DNA of 64,000 nucleotides, taken from the NCBI GenBank assembly GCA_963841915.1, contig CAWJEN010000005.1:224001-288000 (forward strand), read 5' to 3'. Under the pieces are notes generated by a model. The model was not told the DNA's origin, did no database searches, and saw only the letters and a list, made by a program, of their open reading frames with translations. This stretch comes from an uncultured Planctomycetota bacterium. Lineage in GTDB: Bacteria; Planctomycetota; Phycisphaerae; Tepidisphaerales; Tepidisphaeraceae. Within the stretch, counting starts at the first letter, position 1, and each line of letters opens with the position of its first letter. Position numbers and translations under genes: made by a program. Shown here one piece after another: positions 2,647 through 48,985 of this stretch.

Positions 2647-4911
2647 ATGCTGAAATCGCTCGTCCTCGATAACGTCGCAACGTTCAGGACCCGCACGGAG
2701 ATGGCAGACCTGAGAAAGGTCAACTACATCTACGGAGCTAACGGGACGGGCAAGACGACGATCTCCCGTGTACTTGCTGATCTCGCGGGTCATCCACGCT
2801 GCAGTGCGACCTGGGCCGACGGAAAGGAGGTGAGGTGTTTGGTTTACAACCGCGACTTCCGCGCGCAAACACTTCCGGCAGGACGCATCCGTGCCGGGCG
2901 TGTTCACCCTCGGTGCCGACCTAGTCGAGCTTCAGGAGAAGATTAAATCGGCGAAGAAGGAGATGGACCGCAAGGAAGAACGCATCCGTGACATGAACGT
3001 TGAACTCGACGGGGATGAAGAACACGAGGGGAAGCGTAAGCAGCGACGACAAGTCGATGAGACCCTGAAAACGGCCGCGTGGACGGTGATGAAGACCCAT
3101 AAGAGCACATTCCAGCAGGCGTTCAAGGGTGTCAGTGCGGACAAAGGCAAGTTCCTGAACCGCCTCCTCAAGGAGCGCCGAAGAGAACACCGCCGAGCCT
3201 GCAGCACAGCAGGATCTGGAGGCGCGTGCGGCCACGCTCTACGGGACCGCACCAGTACGCGAAGTCGGCGTTACCGAACCTGTCGTGGGATGCGATCATG
3301 CGGTGCGAAGAGCACCCGCTGCTTAGCAAGGTCATCGTCGGGAGCGCTGACGTCGACCTCGCCGGACTCATCGAGGCGTTAGAGCATGGGGACTGGGTCA
3401 AGGCGGGATTGTCGCATCTGGAGCGGACCGACGGCTCATGTCCCTTCTGCCAGCAACCGGTACCGGACAAGCTCCGGTCTGACCTAGACGCCTTCTTCGG
3501 GGGGAGCTACCAGGCGGACATCGAGGCACTCGCCGATCTGGTCGCCGACTACAAGCGCCACGACGCGGCGCTGCGTCAATCGTTAGACGACCTCGCCGAA
3601 CGTGGTACCCCGCGCCTCGACGCGGCGCTTTTCGAGGCGCACCGTCAGGCGATCGTCTCCGTCCTCGACGAGAACCACGCCACCCTCCTCACGAAACAGG
3701 GTGCTCCGGGTCAAAAGGTAACGCTCAAATCCATTGGCGACGTCGTCACACCACTCGCCGACCTCATCACGGAAGCCAACGCCGCTATCAAGCAGCACAA
3801 TGCCCTCGTCGACAACCGGCACGAAGAGACACGCGAACTCACGGATCAGGTTTGGCGTCACTTGATCGACGGTCCGCTGAAGAACTCACTGGACAAGCAC
3901 AAAGCCGAGGTTGAGAGCCTGAACAAGGCAATCGACGGGATCACCACGAAGCAAGTTACGGCCGAGAAAGAACAAAACCGCCTGAAGGCGGAACTCGCTG
4001 CATTGGAGCGGAAGGTGACTGGTGTCGTCCCGACCATGACGGCGATCAACGACTTGCTCGAGGCCTACGGCTTCGACACCTTTCGACTCGCCGAAGCGAC
4101 GGGTTCCTCCAACGCCTACGAGCTCCGCCGGCCGGACGGCACCGCCTGTGGCGACACCCTCAGCGACGGGGAGCAAACGTTCGTCACGCTTCTTTACTTC
4201 TACCACCTAGTTTGTAACGGCAGTCACGAGTCGGACGCCGTCACCACGCCCCGCGTCGTCGTCTTCGACGACCCGGTGTCGAGTGTCGACGGCGACACGC
4301 TCTTCGTTATAAGCCACCTGATCCAGGACGTGATCAAGAGAGTACGGGAATCGTCAGACAGCCAATCGCAGGATGGTGGGGGCGAAACAGGAGAGGTAAC
4401 GCAGGTTTTTGTGCTAACGCACAATGTCTACTTTCACAAGCAGGTTGCGTTCCACACGAAGCGGCAGAAGGGAAAAGCTTTTAAGGACGAGACATTCTGG
4501 GTCGTCCGCCGCGTGAACACGATGTCGACAATCGAGCAGCACGACAGGAACCCGGTCCGTGATTCCTATGGCCTCCTGTGGGACGACGTCCGCGACCAAC
4601 AGCGCAGCGCTAACCAACTCTGCAACACGCTGCGCCGCATCCTTGAAACCTATTTCAAGATGTTTGGCTCGGTTGACCTGCGCACTCTTGAGGACAAATT
4701 CGACGGTTCCGAGAGGGTCTTGTGCGCGTCGCTACTCTCCTGGGCCCACGACGGATCGCACGCGGCGATGGACGACCTGCACGCCGCTCAAAGTCCCGAC
4801 GCCAGAGTCCGTTATCTCGCCGTGTTTCGGAAGATCTTCGAGAAGCACAACCACCTCGCTCACTACAAGATGATGATGGGTGACAACGCAGATAAATGCG
4901 GAACGGAATAA
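2647..4911 (+). CDS. RloC-like AAA_13 ABC-ATPase with zinc hook and C-terminal HEPN-like domain; three apparent +1 frameshifts (~2860, ~3176, ~3258), either assembly error or pseudogene
   Basis: Walker A YGANGTGKTT, VYNRDF, coiled coil with CPFCQQ hook, LSDGEQ signature, VVVFDDPVSS Walker B, VLTHN H-loop, NTLRRILETYF...SWAHDGSH; split over supplied ORFs 2647, 2891 and 3226. Confidence 0.85.
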
Positions 4912-5817: not shown

Positions 5818-5969
5818 GGCGGCAGGCAAGGGACGACGGCGCAGGCGACGCCCCAAGGTACCACGTCCCGCCGCCGCACCAACGACATTTGGAGGATCCT
5901 CACGGAACCTTCACCTGCCCCGCCGCTGCGTTACAGACGACGGACATTTGCTTCCGTTGCAGATAGGCT

Positions 5970-6028
5970 CCTGACCCCTCGGTTCCGCCTGACCCCTTAG
6001 TTCCGCCCGCCGCGACCCGTGCCACCTT
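5970..6028. repeat. Inverted copy of the 4904 element plus half copy of the 1842 palindrome
   Basis: CTGACCCCTTAGTTCCG 5989-6005; CGCGACCCGTGCCACCTT 6011-6028 identical to 1905-1922. Confidence 0.8.
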
Positions 6029-6040
6029 GCCGTGACGACT

Positions 6041-9000
6041 TCAAGAAGCCGTCGCCGGTTGCTCTGCCTCGTAGCCCTTCATGAGCAGGTTGCGCAGCGT
6101 CAGCAGCAACGGCTCGGGCTCGATGAACACGGCCGGGGGGCGGAGGTAGATGGTCTTTTGGTCGATCACGCGGAGGGTGCCGGGGGCGCCTTGCAGAGCC
6201 TGTTGGGCGCGGGTCGCGTCGCGGACGCCGAGGGCGACGTCGGGGACTTGGCGAACGATGCGGTCGATGCCGAAGTGGCTGGCGAGGAGGCGGAGCTCGG
6301 TCAGGGCGTAGACGACTTCCATCTGTCGCGGCGGCTCGCCGAAGGCGTCGGCGACGTCTTGTTTCAACTGGCGGATCTCTTCGATGGTCGTGCAGCGGGT
6401 CAGGCGGCGATACAGGTCCATCCGCTGGCGGTCGTTGTGGACGTACGTCTTGGGGATGAACGTCGTCACGTCGATCTCGACGTGGGCCTCGGGCTTGGTC
6501 GCGATCGGCTCGTCCTTGAGCTGGCGCGTGGCGTCTTCGAGGAGCTGGCAGTACATCTCGTAGCCGACGGTGGCGATGTGGCCCGACTGCTCGGGGCCGA
6601 GGATGTTGCCGGCCCCGCGGAGTTCGAGGTCACGCATGGCGATTTTGAAGCCGGCGCCGAGGTGGGAAAACTCCTCGATGGCTTTGAGCCGTTTGGCGGC
6701 GACTTCAGTCAGGACGCGGTCGGCGGGCAGGAGCATGTAGCAGTAAGCCCGGTGCTTGTACCGCCCGACGCGTCCGCGTAGCTGGTGCAACGCGCTCAGG
6801 CCGAACCGGTCGGCCCCGTTGATGAACATCGTGTTGGCGTTAGGAATGTCCAGGCCGCTCTCGATGATCGTCGTGGCGACGAGCACGTCCGCCTCGTGGC
6901 GGATGAACTTGAGCATGACTTTTTCGAGCTCGCCTTCGTCCATCTGGCCGTGGCCGTAGATGACGCGGGCGTCGGGGCACAATCGCTTGATCATCGCCGC
7001 CTGTTCTGCGATGTCGAAGACCTTGTTGTGGACGTAAAACACCTGCCCGCCCCGCTGCAGTTCGCGGTTGATGGCGAGCCTGATGCGTTCCTCTTCGAAG
7101 CTAAGGACTTCCGTCACGATTGCCCGCCGATCCTGCGGCGGCGTCGTTAGGCTGCTGATGTCACGGAGGCCGACCATGCCCATGTGCAGCGTCCGGGGAA
7201 TGGGCGTGGCCGACATCGTCAGGACGTCGACTTGCGTGCGGAGTTGCTTGAGTTTTTCCTTGTGGGTGACGCCGAACCGCTGTTCTTCGTCGACGATGAC
7301 GAGGCCGAGGTCCTTGAAGTGCGTGCCCTTGCCGAGAAGTTTGTGCGTGCCGATGACGATGTCGATGTCACCCGAGGCGAGTGCGGCCTGGATGTCTTTG
7401 GTTTGCCGTGCGGTCTTGAAGCGGCTGAGCGATTCGATCGCGAACGGGTAGGCCTTCATCCGCTCCTTGAAGGAGCGTTCGTGCTGCTCGGCGAGCACCG
7501 TCGTCGGCACGAGCACCGCGACCTGCTTGCCGGCTTCGACGGCTTTGAATGCGGCTCGCATGGCCATCTCGGTCTTGCCGTAGCCGACGTCGCCGCAAAG
7601 GAGGCGGTCCATCGGCCGCGGCTTGGTCATGTCGCTCTTGATGTCCTCGGCCGCCGTGAGCTGATCCTCCGTCTCGCTGTACGGGAACTCGGCCTCGAAC
7701 TCCTTTTGCCACTCGGTGTCGCTCGGGAATGGGTGGCCGACCTCAGCGGCACGGCGAGCCTGGACCTCGAGCATCTCGGCCGCCATGTCCATCACGGCTT
7801 CGCCGACCTTTTCCTTCTGCTTCTCCCAAGCGGTGCCGCCGAGCTTGGAAAGCGTCGGGTGCCCGCTGAAGCCGCCGACGTACTTCTGGACGAGGTTGAT
7901 GCGGCTGGCCGGAACGTACAGCGCCGCATTCTCGGCGAATCGGAGCGTGAGATACTCTTCCTTGCGGCCCTCCTTTTCCATCGTCTGCATGCCGGTGAAC
8001 TTGGCGATGCCGTGGGCGACGTGGACGACGTAATCGCCGACGCTGAGGTCGAGGAACGAGTCGATCTGCTTGGTGGTGCCCCCACCGACGCCCTTGCTCC
8101 TGACGCGCCTTCGCATCTCGTAGCGGTGGAACAACTCGTGGTGGCCTACCAAAGCGACGAGAGATGAGGAACGAGCAACGGGTCCAGAGGCGTCCGCTCC
8201 GGCCTCGTTGCTCAATCCTCGTTCCTCGTCTCTTTCATCCCCCCAGACGAAGCCGCGGTGGAGGTAGCCGATCGGTGTGTCGATCCGCTCGCACGCACCG
8301 GGAGATTCGGCCTCGAGTAGTTCGCACAGCCGCGACTGGTCGCCGCTGTTCTCGCAGAACACGGTCACGCTCTGCCGGCGCGACAGCTCGCCAACTTCTT
8401 CAAGCGCTTTCTTCGACTCCGTCTCGAACATTTGAAGGCTGCGCACCGGCAGCTTCAGACTCTTCACGTAGTCGGCCGCGGCATCGTTGACCAGGCTGAC
8501 GTAGCCTTGATCAAACTGACTTGCCTCGATCGTGGGTCGCTTGCCGATGAGCTTCAGCACGCTGGCCAGCGGGTACAAGCCACGCTGATCAGCGGCTTTC
8601 GTGAGGTAACTTCTGGCCTGTTCAGCAATCTCAAGTGGAGCCCAGAAGAAGACGATCGCGTCGTCCGGAACGAACTTGAGCACGCTGGTCGAACGGCTTT
8701 CGTCGACTTTCCCCTTCAGGTCGACGAACTCGACGGCCTCCAGCGTTCCCTCGCTGCCGAGCGTGTCGATGTTGAACCGCTTGAGCGTCTCGACCTGGTC
8801 GCCGAAGAAGTCGACCCGCACGGGCAGGCCGAGCTGTTGCAGCCCGCTGCCGTCGACGGTGCCGAATTTGCCTGGCAGGTAGACGTCGATGATCCCGCCG
8901 CGGACGGCGAAGTCGCCTGGGACTTCCACCTGGTCGAGACGGTTGTAGCCGTGATCGCTGAGCCAGACGATGAGCTTCTCGGGCTCGATCTCCTGGCCAG

Positions 9001-30084: not shown

Positions 30085-31070
30085 GCGGACGCCTCGCTGC
30101 GGTGGGTGATCCGGCCGACACCGCGGCGGAGCCGGCGGACGACCCGGCGGGCTTTCTGCGTTGCAGAAGCGGCGAGTTCGGCCGAGCCGAGCCGCACAGC
30201 GCGGCCCCACTGCCGCTGGGCGACAGCGCGGGCATAGGACGTGCCGGGCCGCATCCAATAGTCGTCCCGCTCGACCGCCCGGTCGATCATCGGCCAGTCG
30301 ATTTCGCCGGTCGATTCCATTTGGTCGAGCAGGTGCTTAAGCAGCGTGTCCTCGACCGGCCGGCCGCCCTTGCTGAAGAAGTGGACAATCCGTGCTCCCT
30401 GCGCCAGCCGCGGCTCGCCGTCGATCATGGCGTTGAGGCTTGTTGAAAGCTCACGAGCTCGGACATTGACTGCCTCAATTGCGCTGTTGAGAGACGGCTG
30501 ATCGCGGTGGTCTTTCATCTCGTCAATGCATCGGACCCAGCGTTCGTGCCAATGAGCGCAAAGGACTAACGCTGCTTGCGTATCGGCCCAGAACGTTACG
30601 CCGCTGTTAAAGTACTTTCGAGTGGGATGACTCCACTCCAATGCGACGCTGATCTGCCGAGCGGCTTCCGGAAAAGCCGGCGTAGGCGATAGTCGATTGC
30701 GATCTTGGACCGCCCCGAAGTCGGCCTCGCCCAATGCGTCCGCTACCGCCGGTACCGGGCGTACCACGAGCGTATCCACGTCAAGGAACACAAACGGCCT
30801 CTGCACGCGAACCGCTAGACTCGTCTTCAAAGCGCGGCTCGCGGGCGCGCCAGCCGGACGATCTACCTCAAACGCTTCGATCCGGTCTACAAGCGGGCCA
30901 ACATCTTTCCAGATGTCCAAGTCGGACGCCGTGGCGGGATCGGTGCAGATTGACACACGGGCGTCTGGATGATGCCGCCGCAAACTCGACACTGCTAGAA
31001 GCAACATACTCTGGTAAACCTTCTCCTTGCCCGACAGGATGTATACGAAATGTTGAACGCCTGAGCTCAT
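30081..31070 (-). CDS. GT8-like nucleotide-diphospho-sugar transferase
   Basis: SRALKT, FVFLDVDT, YFNSGV, RDQPSLN. Confidence 0.8.
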   Translation of the reverse strand: MSSGVQHFVYILSGKEKVYQSMLLLAVSSLRRHHPDARVSICTDPATASDLDIWKDVGPLVDRIEAFEVDRPAGAPASRALKTSLAVRVQRPFVFLDVDTLVVRPVPAVADALGEADFGAVQDRNRLSPTPAFPEAARQISVALEWSHPTRKYFNSGVTFWADTQAALVLCAHWHERWVRCIDEMKDHRDQPSLNSAIEAVNVRARELSTSLNAMIDGEPRLAQGARIVHFFSKGGRPVEDTLLKHLLDQMESTGEIDWPMIDRAVERDDYWMRPGTSYARAVAQRQWGRAVRLGSAELAASATQKARRVVRRLRRGVGRITHRSEASA

Positions 31071-32152
31071 GCGACCCTCATCTGCTGGAGGTTGAGCTTC
31101 TTGAGGAACATGTCGACCTGTTCATATTGAGGCTGAATATGACCAGGCTCCCACTCCACCTGACCCCCCGTTTCATCAATGATTCGCCATGAACCAGGGC
31201 AACCTGCAACAGCTGCCATTGAGAATGTATACGTCACTTCTACCAATAACGGCCCTTCAGGGCCACGTAGTATATCGACGGCACAGCATCTTGATCCTAT
31301 CACTCTTGCTGCCCGAACTGCAAGTTTGATAGCGCTAAGATCGACAGCGTCCTGGTCATAGTCGATTAGTCCGCTCCCACTCGCCCGGAAATCGTTCGGC
31401 CTATTGTACCTACGAAATGCAAAGACTCGATCGCCGATGACCGTCACCCGTGTATCAAAAGCATTGGCAGGAACAAGCTCTTGAGCAATAAGGTAGCCAG
31501 CATGGACCGGCCAGTGCCAATCGCTCTCGATGGCGGCTGAGTTTTTCATCCGGTGCACGGGGTTAACTACCTGCCTCATGGACAAGGTCGCGCGTCGAAT
31601 ACGTTTTCGAAGAGGTAGCGTTTCAACATCAGACAGCTGCTGGAGACCTCGGTCAAAGAACCTGTCGGCAAAACTCTCTGCCTCCGACTTCGTTTCAACG
31701 AGCTTTACCCCAGACGAACCTGCACCTGAAGCCAGCTTGATCACGAACGGGAAAGGGTGCTCGCTGAGCCAACGGTCCAGATCAACCCGACGCGTGAACA
31801 CCCAGGTTTTCGGTGTCGGCAAGTTAAGTGCAGCGAAAAGAACGGCTTGTGATGCTTTGTCATCATAGTGCCATCTCATCGACAGGTCCGGAAACACCGG
31901 TATTGATAAACCGTGCTCCGCGACGCTGAGGACTCTCATCGCGTGCTGCATCATCCATGGCATTTGATAAAAGCGCCACATCACAGCATCCACCTCAGCT
32001 AACTGCCTACCCGCGTCTGGTGCATACAAATCGAGATCTTGATACGGTATTCCATGCTCATCGAGGCGACGCTTCCACCAGTAACTACAGGAGTCGGAAT
32101 AAGCCGGTTGACCCTCCTTAGTGTAATCGTCATGCTGTATTCCGATCAGCAT
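31067..32152 (-). CDS. RimK-like ATP-grasp protein
   Basis: YDDKASQ, PTPKTW, PFVIKLASGAGSSGV, QELVP..FDTRVTVIG, DFRASGSG, LLVEV. Confidence 0.85.
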   Translation of the reverse strand: MLIGIQHDDYTKEGQPAYSDSCSYWWKRRLDEHGIPYQDLDLYAPDAGRQLAEVDAVMWRFYQMPWMMQHAMRVLSVAEHGLSIPVFPDLSMRWHYDDKASQAVLFAALNLPTPKTWVFTRRVDLDRWLSEHPFPFVIKLASGAGSSGVKLVETKSEAESFADRFFDRGLQQLSDVETLPLRKRIRRATLSMRQVVNPVHRMKNSAAIESDWHWPVHAGYLIAQELVPANAFDTRVTVIGDRVFAFRRYNRPNDFRASGSGLIDYDQDAVDLSAIKLAVRAARVIGSRCCAVDILRGPEGPLLVEVTYTFSMAAVAGCPGSWRIIDETGGQVEWEPGHIQPQYEQVDMFLKKLNLQQMRVA

Positions 32153-33396
32153 CGTGTCTCCTCGTGAGACCAGAGTCCGGGGCAAATGAACATGCCCAAG
32201 CTTCGACGCATTTCGCGACTGCGCGTGTCGAACGTCATAACGACGGCATCTCCAATCCTGTCGTGCACCAGATTCAGCTCATCGTTGAGCCGAGCTGTCA
32301 ACGTGTAATCACCATCTCTGAGCCGCACATCTCGTACAGTGACGCAGATTTCGTGAAGCCCGTGCTTCAGGCGAAGCGGGAACTCTTCATCGTCATTGCA
32401 TTGATGAATGACGACATTTCCAAGTCGATCTCTCATGCTGAAACTTAACAGAGCTGAACGATCTGCGTCGGAGTATACCATCGCGGAGAAATGAAGATCA
32501 TCTCCACTACTGAAAGTACCTCCGCTCCGTCGAGGAGGTTTGACCGCAAGGCGCTGGATCCTCATCGGGCCGTTGCCGCTCCGCTCCCAGCCTTGATCAT
32601 CCGATAGATCCGCTTCCAAGGTCAGGTCCGCGGGCTTGAGATACACTGCGACCATTTCTCGCGACGGTCCAACATCCTTGAGATGTCCTTCGCCTAGAAC
32701 AGCAACACGTGTACAAAGTTCAGCCACTGCCGCCATGTTGTGACTAACGAACAGGACGGTTCGCCCCTCCCCGGCCACATCCTTCATCTTTCCCAAGCAT
32801 TTCCTTTGGAATGCAGCGTCGCCAACTGCCAAGACCTCGTCCACGATTAAGACCTCCGGCTCCAGGTGGGCCGCGACCGCGAAGGCCAGCCGCGTGTACA
32901 TGCCGCTGCTGTACTGCTTTACCGGCGTGTCGAGGAACTTCTCGACCTCGCTGAAGGCGACGATCTCGTCGAACTTGCCGCGGATCTCGGCCTGGCTCAT
33001 GCCGAGGATCGCGCCGTTCATGAAGATGTTCTCGCGGCCGGTCAGTTCCGGGTGGAAACCGGTCCCGACCTCGAGCAGGCTGCCGACGCGGCCCTTCACC
33101 ATGATCTCGCCGGTCGTCGGTTCGGTGATCCGGCTGAGGATTTTGAGCAGCGTGCTCTTGCCCGCGCCATTGCGGCCGATGATGCCGACCACCTCGCCTC
33201 GCTTGACCTCGAAGCCGACGTCCTTGAGGGCCCAGAAGCTGTTCTCCTCGGTCATCGGGCCCTTCGGCCGAAGGGCCGACAAAGGGTTCTTGGCGAGGCC
33301 GACGAGGCTCTCGCGGAGGTTGCCATAGGGCTTCTTCTCGGTGCCGATGCGGTACCGCTTGCCGACGCCGTCAATCCGTATTGCGATGTCGCTCAA
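32146..33396 (-). CDS. wzt: Polysaccharide ABC transporter ATP-binding protein with C-terminal carbohydrate-binding domain
   Basis: FWALKDV, GRNGAGKSTLLK, YSSGM..RLAF, LIVDEVLAVGD, VSHN; TTGA overlap. Confidence 0.95.
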   Translation of the reverse strand: MSDIAIRIDGVGKRYRIGTEKKPYGNLRESLVGLAKNPLSALRPKGPMTEENSFWALKDVGFEVKRGEVVGIIGRNGAGKSTLLKILSRITEPTTGEIMVKGRVGSLLEVGTGFHPELTGRENIFMNGAILGMSQAEIRGKFDEIVAFSEVEKFLDTPVKQYSSGMYTRLAFAVAAHLEPEVLIVDEVLAVGDAAFQRKCLGKMKDVAGEGRTVLFVSHNMAAVAELCTRVAVLGEGHLKDVGPSREMVAVYLKPADLTLEADLSDDQGWERSGNGPMRIQRLAVKPPRRSGGTFSSGDDLHFSAMVYSDADRSALLSFSMRDRLGNVVIHQCNDDEEFPLRLKHGLHEICVTVRDVRLRDGDYTLTARLNDELNLVHDRIGDAVVMTFDTRSREMRRSLGMFICPGLWSHEETRC

Positions 33397-34809
33397 GCTT
33401 CGGGACCTACGTAGGCGGTGGTGCCTTCGGAGCGAATGCGGCTCGTCTCGGCGGGGTGCGAGTTGGCGGAAGGCACCGGGAGGAACAACGGGATGACCGC
33501 GAGCGCGAGGAGTGCCCACGTCGGGTGCGCCATGACGAAGAACTGGAAGAGCGCGTTCGACGCGACGCCGTTCGGGATGATGTTCCGCTCCGCCGCCTGG
33601 ATAAGTATTTCTGCCCAAGGGGCGACGAGGAAGACGGACAGCGGCAGAAGCAGGAGGAGCCCGGTCCGCCAGCTGTCGCGGCTTGCCAGCTTGGCGATGC
33701 CAACGGCGAGGGCCGGCAGCAAGATGACCGCGTCGTACGGGCGGTGGTACACGGCGAGCAGGGTCATCGCAAGCAGCGGGGTCATCAGGAGAGCCTCGTC
33801 CGTCGCGACCTGGCCGGGAGCAGTCCGCCAGACTCGCCGCACCCATAGCACCAGCACCGGAACGAGCAGGACGATTGCGACGCCCTTGGCCCAATGCCCT
33901 TCGATGAAGAAGCGGATGAGGGTGTCGAGGTGGAGCTTGCCAAACTGCGATGCGGCGCCAGCCCCAACTCGAAGATCCGGCATAGAGGCTACTTCGCTCG
34001 AAACGCCCTCAGGCCAGTTTGGGTTGAGCGTCAGTAACTGGAAGGCGACAATCGATCCGAAGATGAGTGGGACGGCGAGGCTGATCGACAGCGTGGTCCA
34101 GCGTCGGCTTGCCGCGAAGAAGAGGCAGAGCGGCAACCCAATCTGCGGCTTGATCGCCGTTGCGACGCCGACGAGCAGGCCGGCGAGAAGGTGCCGCGAA
34201 CGGCGTGCGCCAAGTGAAGCCGCGAGACCAGCAACCGCAAGCGAGCCGGCGAGCATCCCGGGGTTGCCGACGGCGAGGCCGGTATGTGCCGGCGCGAAAC
34301 CCAAGATGGCGGCGGCCGCCAGGAGAAGCGGAATGGGTCGACGACGCAGCCCGATCGTAAGCGCAACGGTCGCCCCTCCCACAAGATAGGCGATGGCAAG
34401 GCACGCCACCCAGAGGCCCTTGGACCAGTTCCAATCGAGTGCGCCGAAGGGAGCGAAAAATGGCAGCGCGCTCGGCGGATAGACGAGATGCATCAACGGC
34501 CGGTCTGCGTTGGGTGCGGCGCCGGAACAGGGGCTCGACGATCTCGCGGTTGTAGGGGTCTACCTGCTGAATCCACGACCGAGACATCGCATAAGGAGCG
34601 GTGAAATCGACCGGGGTCCCGCTGAAGCCTCGGGCGAGGCCTCGCGTGCAGAACAGGCCGCCCGCCAGGAGCAGGAGGATCAGCAGGGCGACACGTAGCC
34701 AGATGGGCTCTCCCGCGGGCCTGAGCTGAGCCGAAGGACTCGATGGTGCACGATCCCGCGGCCGACTCGCGGCCGAAGTGGGTCCGGTTAGTTCGCCGCT
34801 TGGAGGCAT
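33393..34809 (-). CDS. GT87/DUF2029-like GT-C membrane glycosyltransferase, frameshift ~34521
   Basis: DF..PY..SR......DPY and LVYPP motifs lie in different frames; IKPQIG, YHRPYD; multi-TM. Confidence 0.8.
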
Positions 34810-35768
34810 CAGACGACGTCGGCGAAGGTCCGCTCAACACGACGGAAGTAGAACAGGCCGCCCGCGAGCAGGAGGCTGGTCGAGACGAATCCCGAGACCC
34901 ACAGGACCGGCGTCGCCGGCGTGCCGAGCAGGGACCAGCGGAAGAACTCGATCGGGGCGGCGATCGGCAGCAGGCCGTAGACCGCCTGCCACACGGGCGA
35001 CGAGATGGACTCGCTCACCGACCAAAAGACCGGAGCGGCGAAGATCAGGAACTTCGTGATGAACGGCAGGACGTACCGCACGTCCCGGTACTCCACGTTC
35101 AGGGCCGACAGCCAGAGCGAGATGCTCATGGAGGCGGCGAAGGTCCAGACGATCGCCAGCGGGAGCAGGACGACCTGGATCGGCGGGAGGTGCGGAACGA
35201 TGTTCTGCCGCCACGCGGGCGCGTCCTCCGGCGGGTGGCCGCCCAGGGCGAAAAAGGCGACCGGCAGGGCGAGCATGATGATCGCGACGAGCGCCAGCTG
35301 CACGAGGAAGTCGACCACCGTGACCATCGCCGCGCTCACCGGCAGGATCAGGCGGGGGAAGTAAATCTTCTTCACCATGTTCTGCGCTGCGACGAGCGAG
35401 CCGCTCGCTTGCTGCAGGCCGGTGTCGAACATCTGCCACGGGAGCTGGCTCGCCAGGAAGAACAGGAACGCGGGTTTAAAGTCGACGGCGCCGGCGAAGA
35501 GCAGGCTCCCGACGATCGTGAAGGCGAGCGGCTGGATGATCGCCCAGGCGAAGCCGAGGACCGTCTGCTTGTAGCGTACCTTGATGTTGCGCGACGCGAG
35601 CACCCAGAAAAGCTCTCGCGATTGCCATAGTTCTTTCCAGTCGACGGCCCGCCAGCCGGAGGAAGGGCGGATCCACGTGATCGGCGGCTCGACGGTGGGG
35701 GTTGCCGCGTCGCGGGACGTCTCGCGGTCGTCGGTGGGGGCGAGCAGGCTGGGGGCGTCGGTCGACAT
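34809..35768 (-). CDS. wzm: Polysaccharide ABC transporter permease
   Basis: ELWQSREL, RNIKVRYKQTVLGFAWAIIQP, KIYFPR, LSALNVEYRDVRY, FRRVERTFADVV. Confidence 0.95.
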   Translation of the reverse strand: MSTDAPSLLAPTDDRETSRDAATPTVEPPITWIRPSSGWRAVDWKELWQSRELFWVLASRNIKVRYKQTVLGFAWAIIQPLAFTIVGSLLFAGAVDFKPAFLFFLASQLPWQMFDTGLQQASGSLVAAQNMVKKIYFPRLILPVSAAMVTVVDFLVQLALVAIIMLALPVAFFALGGHPPEDAPAWRQNIVPHLPPIQVVLLPLAIVWTFAASMSISLWLSALNVEYRDVRYVLPFITKFLIFAAPVFWSVSESISSPVWQAVYGLLPIAAPIEFFRWSLLGTPATPVLWVSGFVSTSLLLAGGLFYFRRVERTFADVV

Positions 35769-35904
35769 GCCTAGAGGGTCGGGCGGCGGCGGCAACGTTG
35801 CGTTGGAGCGTCAATCGTCGTCAGCAAGACGGGGCGACCTCGATGTCGCCTGGGCGACGAGCGTTGCAGTGCGGGAAGAGGCGTCAACCTCTCGGTGCGG
35901 GACG

Positions 35905-36134
35905 CAATGTTCACGTTCTGTATGAGAACGTGCAGATTCTGTTCCGTTTTAATCCGTCCTGAAGCGGAACGTGCACGTTGCGAGGCAGAACGTGACGGTT
36001 CCGTCGCGGAACCCGCACGTTCCGCCGTGGAACGTGCAGGTTCCGGACCACAGTCATCACGTTCCCGCGTAGAACCTGCACGCTGAGGAGCGAAACCTGC
36101 ACGGTTTGGAACGAAAACGCGCGGTTCCGTGATG
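35905..36134. repeat. Degenerate 21-bp-period array, ~10 units: palindromic 14-bp core GAACGTGCACGTTC + 7 variable bp
   Basis: Units at 35905, 35926, then 35967, 35988, 36009, 36030, 36051, 36072, 36093, 36114; one 20-bp interruption at 35947-35966. Confidence 0.85.
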
Positions 36135-36210
36135 CATCGCAACATATCAGCTGCGCCAAGCCGCTTTTTCTCGGGCGTGACCGAACGATCGTCCAAAAGC
36201 GGACTCGTGC

Positions 36211-36238
36211 TCAGAAAAACCTTTGTTGTGGCCGACAT
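36211..36238 (+). promoter_or_regulatory. Degenerate sigma28-like promoter
   Basis: TCAGA-N15-GCCGACAT, same spacing and similar distance to gene as 1757-1784. Confidence 0.4.
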
Positions 36239-36345
36239 CAGGAGCATGGCTGCGGTAGCGGGCGACGTTCGCCCCTGTCGAGTTCTACCGACGGCCGACG
36301 CGGGGCGTTCCCGCGACGTACCTCACCCCATGACGGAACCCTCCG

Positions 36346-37044
36346 ATAAATCTCTCCTCCATCTTCAACCATGACAGCGACTTGCTCGCCCGGTCGGCAG
36401 TCTTCGCCGCCAAGATCAGCGCGACCGGTGCGGCCGGCAACTACGGGCTGAGCGATCAGCAGGCAACGGAATATCAGACCACCTAGACCCGTTTCGCCGA
36501 TGCGATGCGGGCCGTGGCCGACCGGGACAACCGGACCCGGACCGACACGATCGTCAAGAACGACGCCCGTTACCACCTCGTCAACGCCAGCCGGAGCCTG
36601 ATCGCCGTGTGTGAGGCGTGGCCCCAGATGACCGACGCGAAGCGGAGCGAGCTCAACCTCCCGATCCGCGATCGGGAGCCGACCCCGCAGACGCGGCTGA
36701 CGGTCGCGCCATTCATCGACATCCTGAGCCAGAACGGGCTGTCGGTCAAGGTCGGCCTGCGCGACGCGGCCGCGTCGACCCGACGTCGCCGCCCGGCGGG
36801 CGCGATCGGGGCGACGATCCTGACGCACGTCGGCGAGACGGCGCCGGCCACGATCGAGGGCTGGACCTTTCAGGGCAACACGAGCAAGACGACGGTCGAC
36901 ATCACGTTCCCGCCGATGACGCCGCGTGGGGCGAAGGTCTGGATCGTCGCGACGTGGTTTAGTCGGACGTCGATGAGCTCGCCTCCCAGCCGTCCGCTCT
37001 TCACGTACCTCTCCGGGGCCGACGGGCTCGCGCAGGCGGCCTGA
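36346..37044 (+). pseudogene. Helical + beta-sandwich hypothetical gene with in-frame TAG and apparently lost start
   Basis: Frame of ORF 36505 extends upstream as INLSSIFNHDSDLLARSAVFAAKISATGAAGNYGLSDQQATEYQTT*TRFADAM; TAG 36484-36486; ATA 36346 follows GGA; ends LAQAA. Confidence 0.7.
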
Positions 37045-48275: not shown

Positions 48276-48319
48276 GAAGATTCTACGAAGCGTTTCGTCT
48301 ACTTCCGCAAGTGTCTCGT

Positions 48320-48985
48320 CTACTTCCGCTTCGACTTCGCCCGGCCGGTCGACTCGCTCAAACGTGCGGCGGCATCGGTGAACAGGTCGGCCAGAGCCTC
48401 ACGATCGGCCTTGACGTCCGTCAGATTCGCCGTCGCCGTCTCCAGCGCTTCGGTCAGCTCCGCCTGAACGGCGGCAAGCTCTTCACGCAGCGCGGCGGAC
48501 TCATCAGTCAGCAGGCTCTTGAGCTCAGCGTCACGCTCGACACTGGCAGCGTCGGCGGCTTTGAGCTTGGTGCTGATCGCATCCATCTTGTCGCTGTGGT
48601 CGCTGTCGAGCTTCCGCATCGCGTCGGTGTGACTGCGGTCGAGCTCGCGCAGTTCGTCGCGACCCTTGCTCAGGCCGTCGTCGAGCCGCTCAGACAGGTC
48701 GCTGATGCGGCCGTCAAGGGCCTCGACGGCTGACTCGACGCGGGAGACGATGTCGTCCCGCATCGTCTCCATGTCGGCTTGAATCTGCTCCTCGAGGTCA
48801 CCCAGGCGGCGCTCGGTGTCACGCTGCTGGTTGCCGAAGAGGATGTCGCGAACGCGGTCGAGCGAGTCGGGTGAGCCATCGCTCGCCGCCAGCGCGGCGG
48901 CGTGCCGGCCACCGACGCCGTTGGTCTCGAACGTGTCATCGTCATCGCGGATGCTCTTGCGAATTGCCTTGGTCTTCTTGGCCAT
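48320..48985 (-). CDS. Coiled-coil hypothetical protein
   Basis: LDRVRDILFG motif followed by acidic heptad repeats. Confidence 0.8.
   Translation of the reverse strand: MAKKTKAIRKSIRDDDDTFETNGVGGRHAAALAASDGSPDSLDRVRDILFGNQQRDTERRLGDLEEQIQADMETMRDDIVSRVESAVEALDGRISDLSERLDDGLSKGRDELRELDRSHTDAMRKLDSDHSDKMDAISTKLKAADAASVERDAELKSLLTDESAALREELAAVQAELTEALETATANLTDVKADREALADLFTDAAARLSESTGRAKSKRK

Follow-up and report, generated by a model that had tools for sequence, protein, structure and literature searches.

A worn array of 21-bp-phased palindromes upstream of a planctomycete wzm gene: a possible member of a dispersed, REP/BIME-like minisatellite

The 64,000-nucleotide stretch analysed here (positions 224,001 to 288,000 of contig CAWJEN010000005.1, assembly GCA_963841915.1, from an uncultured planctomycete of the Tepidisphaeraceae; hereafter the window) contains, in the gap upstream of a wzm gene, an array of about ten units of 21 bp (35904..36134, no strand assigned), each consisting of a 16-bp palindrome, GGAAC-N6-GTTCC, and a 5-bp linker. 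The array is real and non-random. Our leading, though tentative, interpretation is that it represents a worn copy of a 21-bp palindromic minisatellite, non-coding and dispersed, that behaves like the repetitive extragenic palindromes (REP) and bacterial interspersed mosaic elements (BIME), and that its two 5-bp arms would be half-sites for a symmetric DNA-binding protein. An earlier note on this DNA had described phased GAAC-N6-GTTC sites with 7-bp linkers, and had proposed an operator-, iteron- or centromere-like lattice or a multi-hairpin RNA.

Results

Structure and state of repair of the array

All eight 14-mers listed in the earlier note were found at exact 21-bp steps from position 35967, and re-reading of the sequence confirmed that the two units upstream of them (GAAC at 35926 and a degraded unit at 35905) are offset by +1 bp. 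The reported phasing therefore holds, whereas the GAAC-N6-GTTC motif itself is intact in just three of the eight in-phase units. The linkers had to be shortened from 7 bp to a free linker of 5 bp, because their outer bases belong to the arms of the 16-bp palindrome, whose consensus in the window is GGAACGTGCACGTTCC.

The core in best repair, at 35966..36049, comprises four successive units with no more than one arm mismatch each (GGAACGTGCACGTTGC, AGAACGTGACGGTTCC, GGAACCCGCACGTTCC and GGAACGTGCAGGTTCC). It is followed by four degraded units that keep the phase (36050..36134; 2–4 arm mismatches in each), and is preceded by a unit-length stretch without recognisable arms (35946-35965) and, further upstream, by the two degraded units that lie +1 bp off the main phase (35904..35945). 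Overall, the arms are perfect in two of the ten units, carry one mismatch in two others and carry 2–4 mismatches in six, indicating that the array has decayed.

Nevertheless, the periodicity is evident by several measures. The self-identity of the array at a lag of 21 is 0.514, compared to 0.253 ± 0.030 with a maximum of 0.367 in 2000 shuffles, and Tandem Repeats Finder detected a period of 21 at 35964-36045 (3.9 copies, 74% matches, score 85) and at 36073-36116 (2.1 copies, 82% matches, score 60). A single instance of the two-unit pattern GGAAC-N6-GTTCC, 4-6 nt, GGAAC-N6-GTTCC exists in the window, compared to none in any of 100 shuffles. When up to three mismatches were allowed, the consensus 16-mer gave three matches in the 64 kb, every one within the array; GGAAC-N6-GTTCC with up to two mismatches gave 19 matches in the window versus 33 expected, and is thus not enriched outside the array.

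Related arrays in other genomes

The same two-unit pattern was used to scan reference genomes and returned at least 120 loci, among which the source genome is absent. Window-type arrays, with units no more than two mismatches from the consensus 16-mer, were found at four of these at least 120 listed loci: 11 units in an Acidobacteria metagenome-assembled genome (MAG; locus L002), 18 and 12 units at two loci of a single Opitutaceae MAG (L008 and L009, respectively), and about 10 units in a Verrucomicrobiota MAG (L086, a locus of 637 bp). Three other loci among the matches listed (L005, L036 and L069) carry one or two window-type units each. All four arrays are better preserved than the window array, and they have in common several traits that the pattern did not impose, namely a period of exactly 21 bp, a TGC core in the inner bases (inner consensus of the unit, GTGCAC/STGCRC), a C before GTTCC and non-identical linkers. 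An nhmmer profile built solely from these four arrays had the window array as its one match in the 64 kb (best E 1.3e-8), and gave no match on the reversed window sequence.

In addition, the two arrays of the Opitutaceae MAG share whole unit variants, linker included, indicating that array segments were moved or exchanged within one genome. The genomic positions of the arrays are diverse. The L008 array starts 12 nt past the stop codon of a gene for a 1599-residue HEAT-repeat protein, the L009 array directly follows the mgsA stop codon and precedes a co-directional open reading frame (ORF) for a membrane protein, and the L002 array lies between the 3' ends of a convergent tnpB (OrfB_IS605/Cas12f-like) and an IstB-like ATPase gene. 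An all-against-all BLASTP comparison of the ORFs flanking eight loci revealed no shared neighbour gene, save a generic pair of GFO/IDH/MocA oxidoreductases with 27% identity, and no conserved flanking DNA was found among the window array and the four related arrays (top flank match 12 nt, E 0.038). The dispersal, the shared variants and the lack of common neighbours or flanks point to a dispersed repeat element, since a site tied to one operon would not behave in this manner. As the better-kept arrays occupy unrelated intergenic positions elsewhere, REP/BIME-type behaviour is suggested rather than an operator made for wzm.

The L002 locus also contains an AT-rich long inverted repeat (5890-6080) with arms of about 70 nt, which is unrelated to its GGAAC array and gave sub-threshold microRNA-precursor-like Rfam matches.

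The period is 22 bp in 101 of the 120 loci listed, 21 bp in 13 and 20 bp in 6. The 22-bp families are chiefly two: one is dispersed in Porphyromonas, and a Bacteroidaceae MAG has the other. For Porphyromonas uenonis and related MAGs, which account for 84 of the at least 120 listed loci, the dispersed family consists of 2–6 units of GGAAC-TAAAAA/TGAAAA-GTTCC followed by TCCCTT, and ends in a characteristic terminal unit (GGAACTGTTTTTGGAAC...). A different 22-bp unit, GGAAC-NGNNGA-GTTCC-ACGTNN, is common to L003 (5935-6130, Actinomycetota MAG) and L006 (6001-6060, Bacteroidaceae MAG), despite their distant phyla.

The 21-bp arrays with the same arms and other inner bases, which occur in Sporosarcina and Scytonema, are also intergenic where this was checkable; given that the arms were a fixed part of the search, they may or may not be kin to the window family. 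For Sporosarcina sp., the arrays at L011 (6001-6800) and L022 (5938-6315) are intergenic and reach a length of about 40 units, each reading GGAAC-GAGCGG-GTTCC followed by TCGTG; on inspection these units are clearly GC-rich, within loci of 43-45% G+C. One of the two lies upstream of a major facilitator superfamily transporter gene and the other between convergent leuS and HI0933-like genes. The L011 array exhibits a 1-bp phase slip in its middle.

Constraint on the arms and the possibility of hairpins

Deviations were scored against each array's own consensus in five arrays (the window, L002, L008, L009 and L086; 61 units). Deviating cells amounted to 64 of 610 in the arms, compared to 114 of 366 in the inner bases and 113 of 305 in the linkers. 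For the window array, the arms deviated in 22 of 100 cells and the rest of the unit in 41 of 110 (Fisher p=0.017), and the corresponding p values in the four related arrays were 2e-10, 7e-4, 7e-9 and 1e-6. Across 15 units of L008, all 10 arm positions are invariant, whereas 8 positions of the inner bases and linkers vary. These results show that the two 5-bp arms are the sole parts kept constant within arrays, in a data set for which the scan pattern required a pair of perfect units and visual inspection of the arms had singled out the window array. The earlier note had put forward a contrast in conservation between cores and linkers, and a comparison of units and paralogous arrays bears this out, the arms being far steadier than the inner bases and linkers.

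Watson-Crick compensation was seen for 6 of the 54 non-consensus arm cells, versus 3.4 in shuffles, and 413 of 5000 shuffles reached 6. Inner pair 6-11 is complementary in 20 of the 61 units. It thus appears that the arm sequence, and not its pairing, is conserved, which would speak for protein recognition rather than for a hairpin under selection.

These observations bear on a second interpretation, possible if rather unlikely, in which the array would act as a series of hairpins on a transcript or on single-stranded DNA, like classical REP, through mRNA 3'-end protection, pausing/termination or processing. The whole array folds far better than its shuffles on each strand (-115.4 kcal/mol, z -5.6, on one and -114.1 kcal/mol, z -5.9, on the other), a unit by itself folds into an RNA hairpin of -5.9 to -11.4 kcal/mol, all three related arrays with usable flanks start about 10–70 nt from a stop codon, and the same-arm Sporosarcina arrays are intergenic as well. 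Conversely, the compensation is not significant, the broken (31) and wobble (17) arm pairs far exceed the compensated ones (6), and the inner pairs are mostly non-complementary. Furthermore, the window array is located upstream of both its flanking genes and 3' of neither, and the L008 and L009 arrays are oppositely oriented relative to the upstream gene. A T-tract is missing, and the single terminator-like hairpin found (35917-35936) is at chance level (0.7 expected). Against Rfam 15, the array yielded only sub-threshold microRNA-precursor-like matches, that is, generic hairpins, and the whole window gave four tRNAs only at the gathering threshold. The multi-hairpin RNA suggested in the earlier note is a possible reading, but one that covariation does not support.

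Coding potential of the array

A 21-bp period corresponds to seven codons, and a protein-coding heptad repeat, such as the 158-residue minus-strand ORF at 35771-36247, was also considered; we give it hardly any credence. The earlier note had cited stops in the plus-strand frames, which are present in all three, and had not mentioned that one minus-strand frame is open across the whole array. The 158-residue ORF has also been deposited as a protein by gene callers. However, a six-frame reading of 10 arrays showed that the open frames differ between arrays and that several are open at once, and the arrays of the window, L086 and Sporosarcina L011 contain internal phase slips of 1 bp. Depending on the frame, 2–3 of the 8 variable L008 positions fall at the third codon position, as expected by chance. 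The ORFs of the arrays matched no Pfam family, the 158-residue ORF matched only itself among 1246 candidates, and the L008 translation matched 0 of 8000 candidates at E≤0.001, in a search in which the HMMER composition correction may suppress repeat matches. The palindromy would have no coding rationale. The inconsistent frames, together with the lack of third-position bias, homologues and Pfam matches, lead us to reject a heptad-repeat protein gene, in agreement with the non-coding assignment in the earlier note.

Repeats of period 21 elsewhere in the window

Of the 13 rows that Tandem Repeats Finder reported for the 64 kb, those with period 21 fall at five distinct sites, which suggests a genome-wide preference for 21-bp duplications. 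A second 21-bp minisatellite, at 2074-2288, contains 10.2 direct copies (90% matches) of the non-palindromic unit TCATCAACGCACAACCGCCGG. Several of its frames are open, with no Pfam match, and it looks more iteron-like than the palindromic array; its unit is present in none of the fetched loci. Short period-21 duplications were observed at 352-394, 30111-30150 and 48288-48329.

The presence of this unrelated minisatellite and of period 21 at five places is in keeping with a neutral origin, in which slippage or unequal exchange multiplied a 21-bp duplication that is by now wearing away and is functionless here, the apparent conservation of the arms resulting from the selection of the arrays. 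The bad erosion of the window copy, with few perfect units and 74% matches, the greater degradation of the ends than of the middles in all the arrays, and a 126-bp higher-order duplication in L009 are consistent with this explanation. We nevertheless consider it unlikely. The L008 arms are invariant at 10 positions across 15 units, whereas ascertainment fixed only two units; one inner motif recurs in arrays of different phyla; and unit variants are common to two loci within a single genome.

Two other observations were made near the start of the window. A 203-bp tandem repeat at 401-981 (2.9 copies, 93% matches), in each copy of which there is a long inverted repeat (GGTGCCACGGTTTGAGCCG ... 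CGGCTCAAGCCGTGGCACC), may be a structured RNA or a unit akin to a MITE (short for miniature inverted-repeat transposable element). The AAA_13 protein encoded at 3103-4911 (+) aligns with the profile of PDC-S06, a candidate defence family of PADLOC (E 1e-181), at positions 201-726 of 732 only, and its N-terminal ~150-200 residues seem to be missing or to lie in another upstream frame, beside the 2074-2288 repeat.

Genomic surroundings and the case for a local operator

The window has a G+C content of 64.8% and a chromosomal look, with genes for Mfd, MutL, G6PD and pyrimidine metabolism and four tRNAs. The array lies inside a 577-bp gap upstream of wzm (34809..35768, minus strand), in which no sigma-70 promoter was predicted. 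About 135 bp separate the array from the wzm ATG at 35768, and a TTG at 35795 is an alternative start. The assignment of wzm in the earlier note is supported by a match to the ABC-2 type permease family in Pfam (ABC2_membrane, 1.1e-12) and by a weak NCBIfam match to Wzm/RfbD. This gene is the first of a glycan/exosortase cluster of about 24 kb, from ~11.6 kb to 35.8 kb and nearly all on the minus strand, which encodes the exosortases EpsH and EpsI, many GT1, GT2, GT4 and GT8 transferases, a Wzy_C protein, an ATP-grasp protein, Wzt (ABC_tran plus Wzt_C) and a GT87 protein, in addition to the ABC-2 permease Wzm. Subtyping of the exosortases with NCBIfam yielded no lineage assignment. Within the cluster, the G+C content falls to 51-59% at 30300-32800, compared to 65% overall; this stretch spans the ATP-grasp ORF, an ORF of unknown function and the 3' half of wzt, and hints at a horizontally acquired segment.

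On the other side, 211 bp from the array, lies a pseudogene of a conserved hypothetical family (36346..37044, plus strand). It has four homologues of 221-231 residues that begin MNLN... and show 38-64% identity over the alignment, and a longer one of 312 residues that aligns in part only. These homologues are known solely from metagenome-derived records. In the window copy, ATA occupies the place of the initiator methionine codon (36346-36348) and an in-frame TAG (36484-36486) stands where the homologues have Gln, so that the gene was correctly called decayed in the earlier note. Reassignment of TAG as an explanation was ruled out, as TAG ends 5 of the 27 confident ORFs.

The position of the array upstream of wzm, at the head of the minus-strand polysaccharide cluster, and the two-turn spacing of its palindromic sites are what speak for a locus-specific operator, iteron or centromere-like lattice that would control the glycan operon or mark a replicon or partition site. 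From its position, the array could regulate the glycan operon. We regard such a lattice as very unlikely, however, because the same type of unit recurs in unrelated intergenic places of other genomes, where no neighbour gene is shared. A Pfam scan of the 67 ORF translations of the window detected no dedicated transcription-regulator, helix-turn-helix regulator, replication-initiator (Rep), partition (Par) or transposase family, and no isolated copies of the site occur elsewhere in the window. A blastn search with the window and L008 arrays against 72,556 plasmids and 50,697 phages gave no match, although the low-complexity filter may hide repeats, and the context, with Mfd, MutL and G6PD, is one of chromosomal housekeeping. 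An autoregulated operator array was rejected as well, the neighbours being wzm and the pseudogene here and unrelated genes at the related arrays. Finally, the sites are eroded: since only four of the ten units have one arm mismatch or none, a lattice at this locus, or an effect on the wzm promoter ~135 bp away, would be weak or residual, and because of this decay any effect on the glycan operon would be weak at most.

Discussion

The proposed protein-DNA arrangement and the points that weigh against it

In the interpretation that we tentatively favour, that of a worn member of a dispersed palindromic minisatellite, the arms would be half-sites of a two-fold symmetric, sequence-specific DNA-binding protein, and candidates for the binder are a host nucleoid-type protein or an enzyme that spreads the element. 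The half-sites would be 11 bp apart within each unit. As the exact 21-bp period corresponds to two helical turns, it would place all of the sites on one face of the DNA, so that adjacent dimers could bind side by side.

Several findings weigh against this interpretation. Of the 120 loci listed, 101 belong to unrelated 22-bp families, and the source genome is absent from the list. The arm conservation is partly a product of ascertainment, because the arms were set in the search pattern and were also what drew attention to the window array, and to cite the conservation of GGAAC across phyla is a circular argument for the same reason. The folding of single units as hairpins makes a structural role possible. 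The bases kept in the units are slightly asymmetric, C at position 11 being retained and G at position 6 not, which is not what a perfectly symmetric dimer predicts. The minisatellite at 2074-2288 and the three short 21-bp duplications raise the possibility that period 21 reflects a duplication habit of the genome and not helical phasing. In addition, no candidate for a protein that binds the arms is encoded among the 67 ORF translations scanned in the window.

Comparison with known systems

REP/BIME elements are the closest match in behaviour. In the passages of Di Nocera et al. 2013 (PMC3733652) drawn on here, the GTAG/CGTC repeats are tagged palindromes with stems of 5-13 bp that are often clustered, they include a 5-bp-stem family found through a tandem-repeat database, and the verrucomicrobium Opitutus terrae is rich in GTAG repeats. 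As far as those passages describe them (PMC3733652), REP/BIME elements resemble the window family in being short non-coding palindromes scattered in intergenic DNA, often in tandem, behind stop codons and between the members of convergent gene pairs, without a constant neighbour, at several loci per genome and in the Planctomycetes-Verrucomicrobia-Chlamydiae group. The array units likewise correspond to the short stem-loop palindromes given there, with 5-bp arms at the lower limit of the reported stems.

The window family differs from REP/BIME in its 16-bp unit with 5-bp arms, in its strict head-to-tail arrays of exactly 21 bp, and in that the defining GTAG/GYRG tag beside the stem is not generally present. 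On the best strand, GYRG stands immediately 5' of GTTCC in 12 of 15 units of L008, 1 of 10 of L009, 1 of 4 of the window array, 0 of 9 of L002 and 2 of 6 of L086. A GTAG-19 element of O. terrae was considered as sharing the GGAAC stem and was rejected, since back-translation from the part of supplementary file 3 of PMC3733652 used here infers a different stem. The numbers of copies per genome seen were two loci in the Opitutaceae MAG, among the matches listed, and one array in the 64-kb window. No Y1 transposase family of the REP-associated tyrosine transposase type was found among the scanned ORFs of the window and of the flanks, up to 12 kb, of the other loci; a tnpB (OrfB_IS605) gene adjoins the L002 array.

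Plasmid iterons and type II centromeres are direct repeats beside rep or par genes, are plasmid-borne and are unique to each replicon. In the ParR-parC type II centromeres, about ten repeats of 11 or 20 bp are coated cooperatively by a small dimeric protein. The window array similarly comprises about ten head-to-tail units at a spacing of about two turns, whereas the units of its family are palindromic and chromosomal, and occur at several unrelated loci with no rep or par genes among the scanned neighbours. The lambda OR/OL, phage 186 CI and E. coli GlpR operators consist of palindromic sites about two turns apart with variable short linkers, which are bound by cooperative dimers; they have 3-4 sites and adjoin the repressor gene, in contrast to the 10-18 units of the window-family arrays and to the window array, which has no regulator gene nearby.

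Two further resemblances concern the minisatellite form and the GGAAC pentamer. BrickBuilt of Porphyromonas gingivalis is a dispersed intergenic minisatellite with units of about 22-23 nt and predicted stem-loops, which is bounded by MITE terminal inverted repeats and is reported, in the sections of the paper drawn on here, only within P. gingivalis (Klein et al. 2015, PMC4596501). Unlike BrickBuilt as those sections describe it, the five window-family arrays show no conserved flanks or terminal inverted repeats around them. GGAAC is also the -35 element of extracytoplasmic function (ECF) sigma promoters, as in the HrpL motif GGAAC-N16-17-CCACNNA given in the cited portion of PMC7532196. The array contains this pentamer, but its GGAAC is followed by GTTCC after 6 nt and by the next GGAAC after 16 nt, and inspection by eye found no -10-like element at the ECF spacing of that portion. 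A resemblance to an ECF -35 or to sigma-54 promoters was rejected on this by-eye inspection, as the spacing does not fit. The open-access literature search found no description of a GGAAC-N6-GTTCC array, though it returned papers on REP.

Implications

Whatever the mechanism, arrays of this kind breed spurious ORFs, as exemplified by the 158-residue singleton, and phased palindromes beside an operon should not be taken as its operator before copies elsewhere have been checked for.

If the arms are protein half-sites, they would provide a defined 16-bp bait, repeated 10-18 times, for finding a new sequence-specific protein that coats chromosomes or mobilises repeats, and poorly studied phyla would gain a tractable handle on such a protein. 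Changes in unit number could then also account for variation in how strongly nearby operons, for instance the glycan-export cluster, are expressed.

A broader proposal, which we consider quite unlikely, is that (GGAAC-N6-GTTCC-N5)n represents an undescribed class of chromosomal protein-DNA lattice in Verrucomicrobiota, Acidobacteriota and possibly Sporosarcina, in which dispersed runs of 10-40 identical half-site pairs, all facing one side of the DNA, would be coated by a putative conserved dimeric protein. If this were true, the arrays would be local insulators, silencers or nucleoid anchors, and those in promoter gaps, such as the one upstream of wzm, would tune surface-glycan expression by gain or loss of units.

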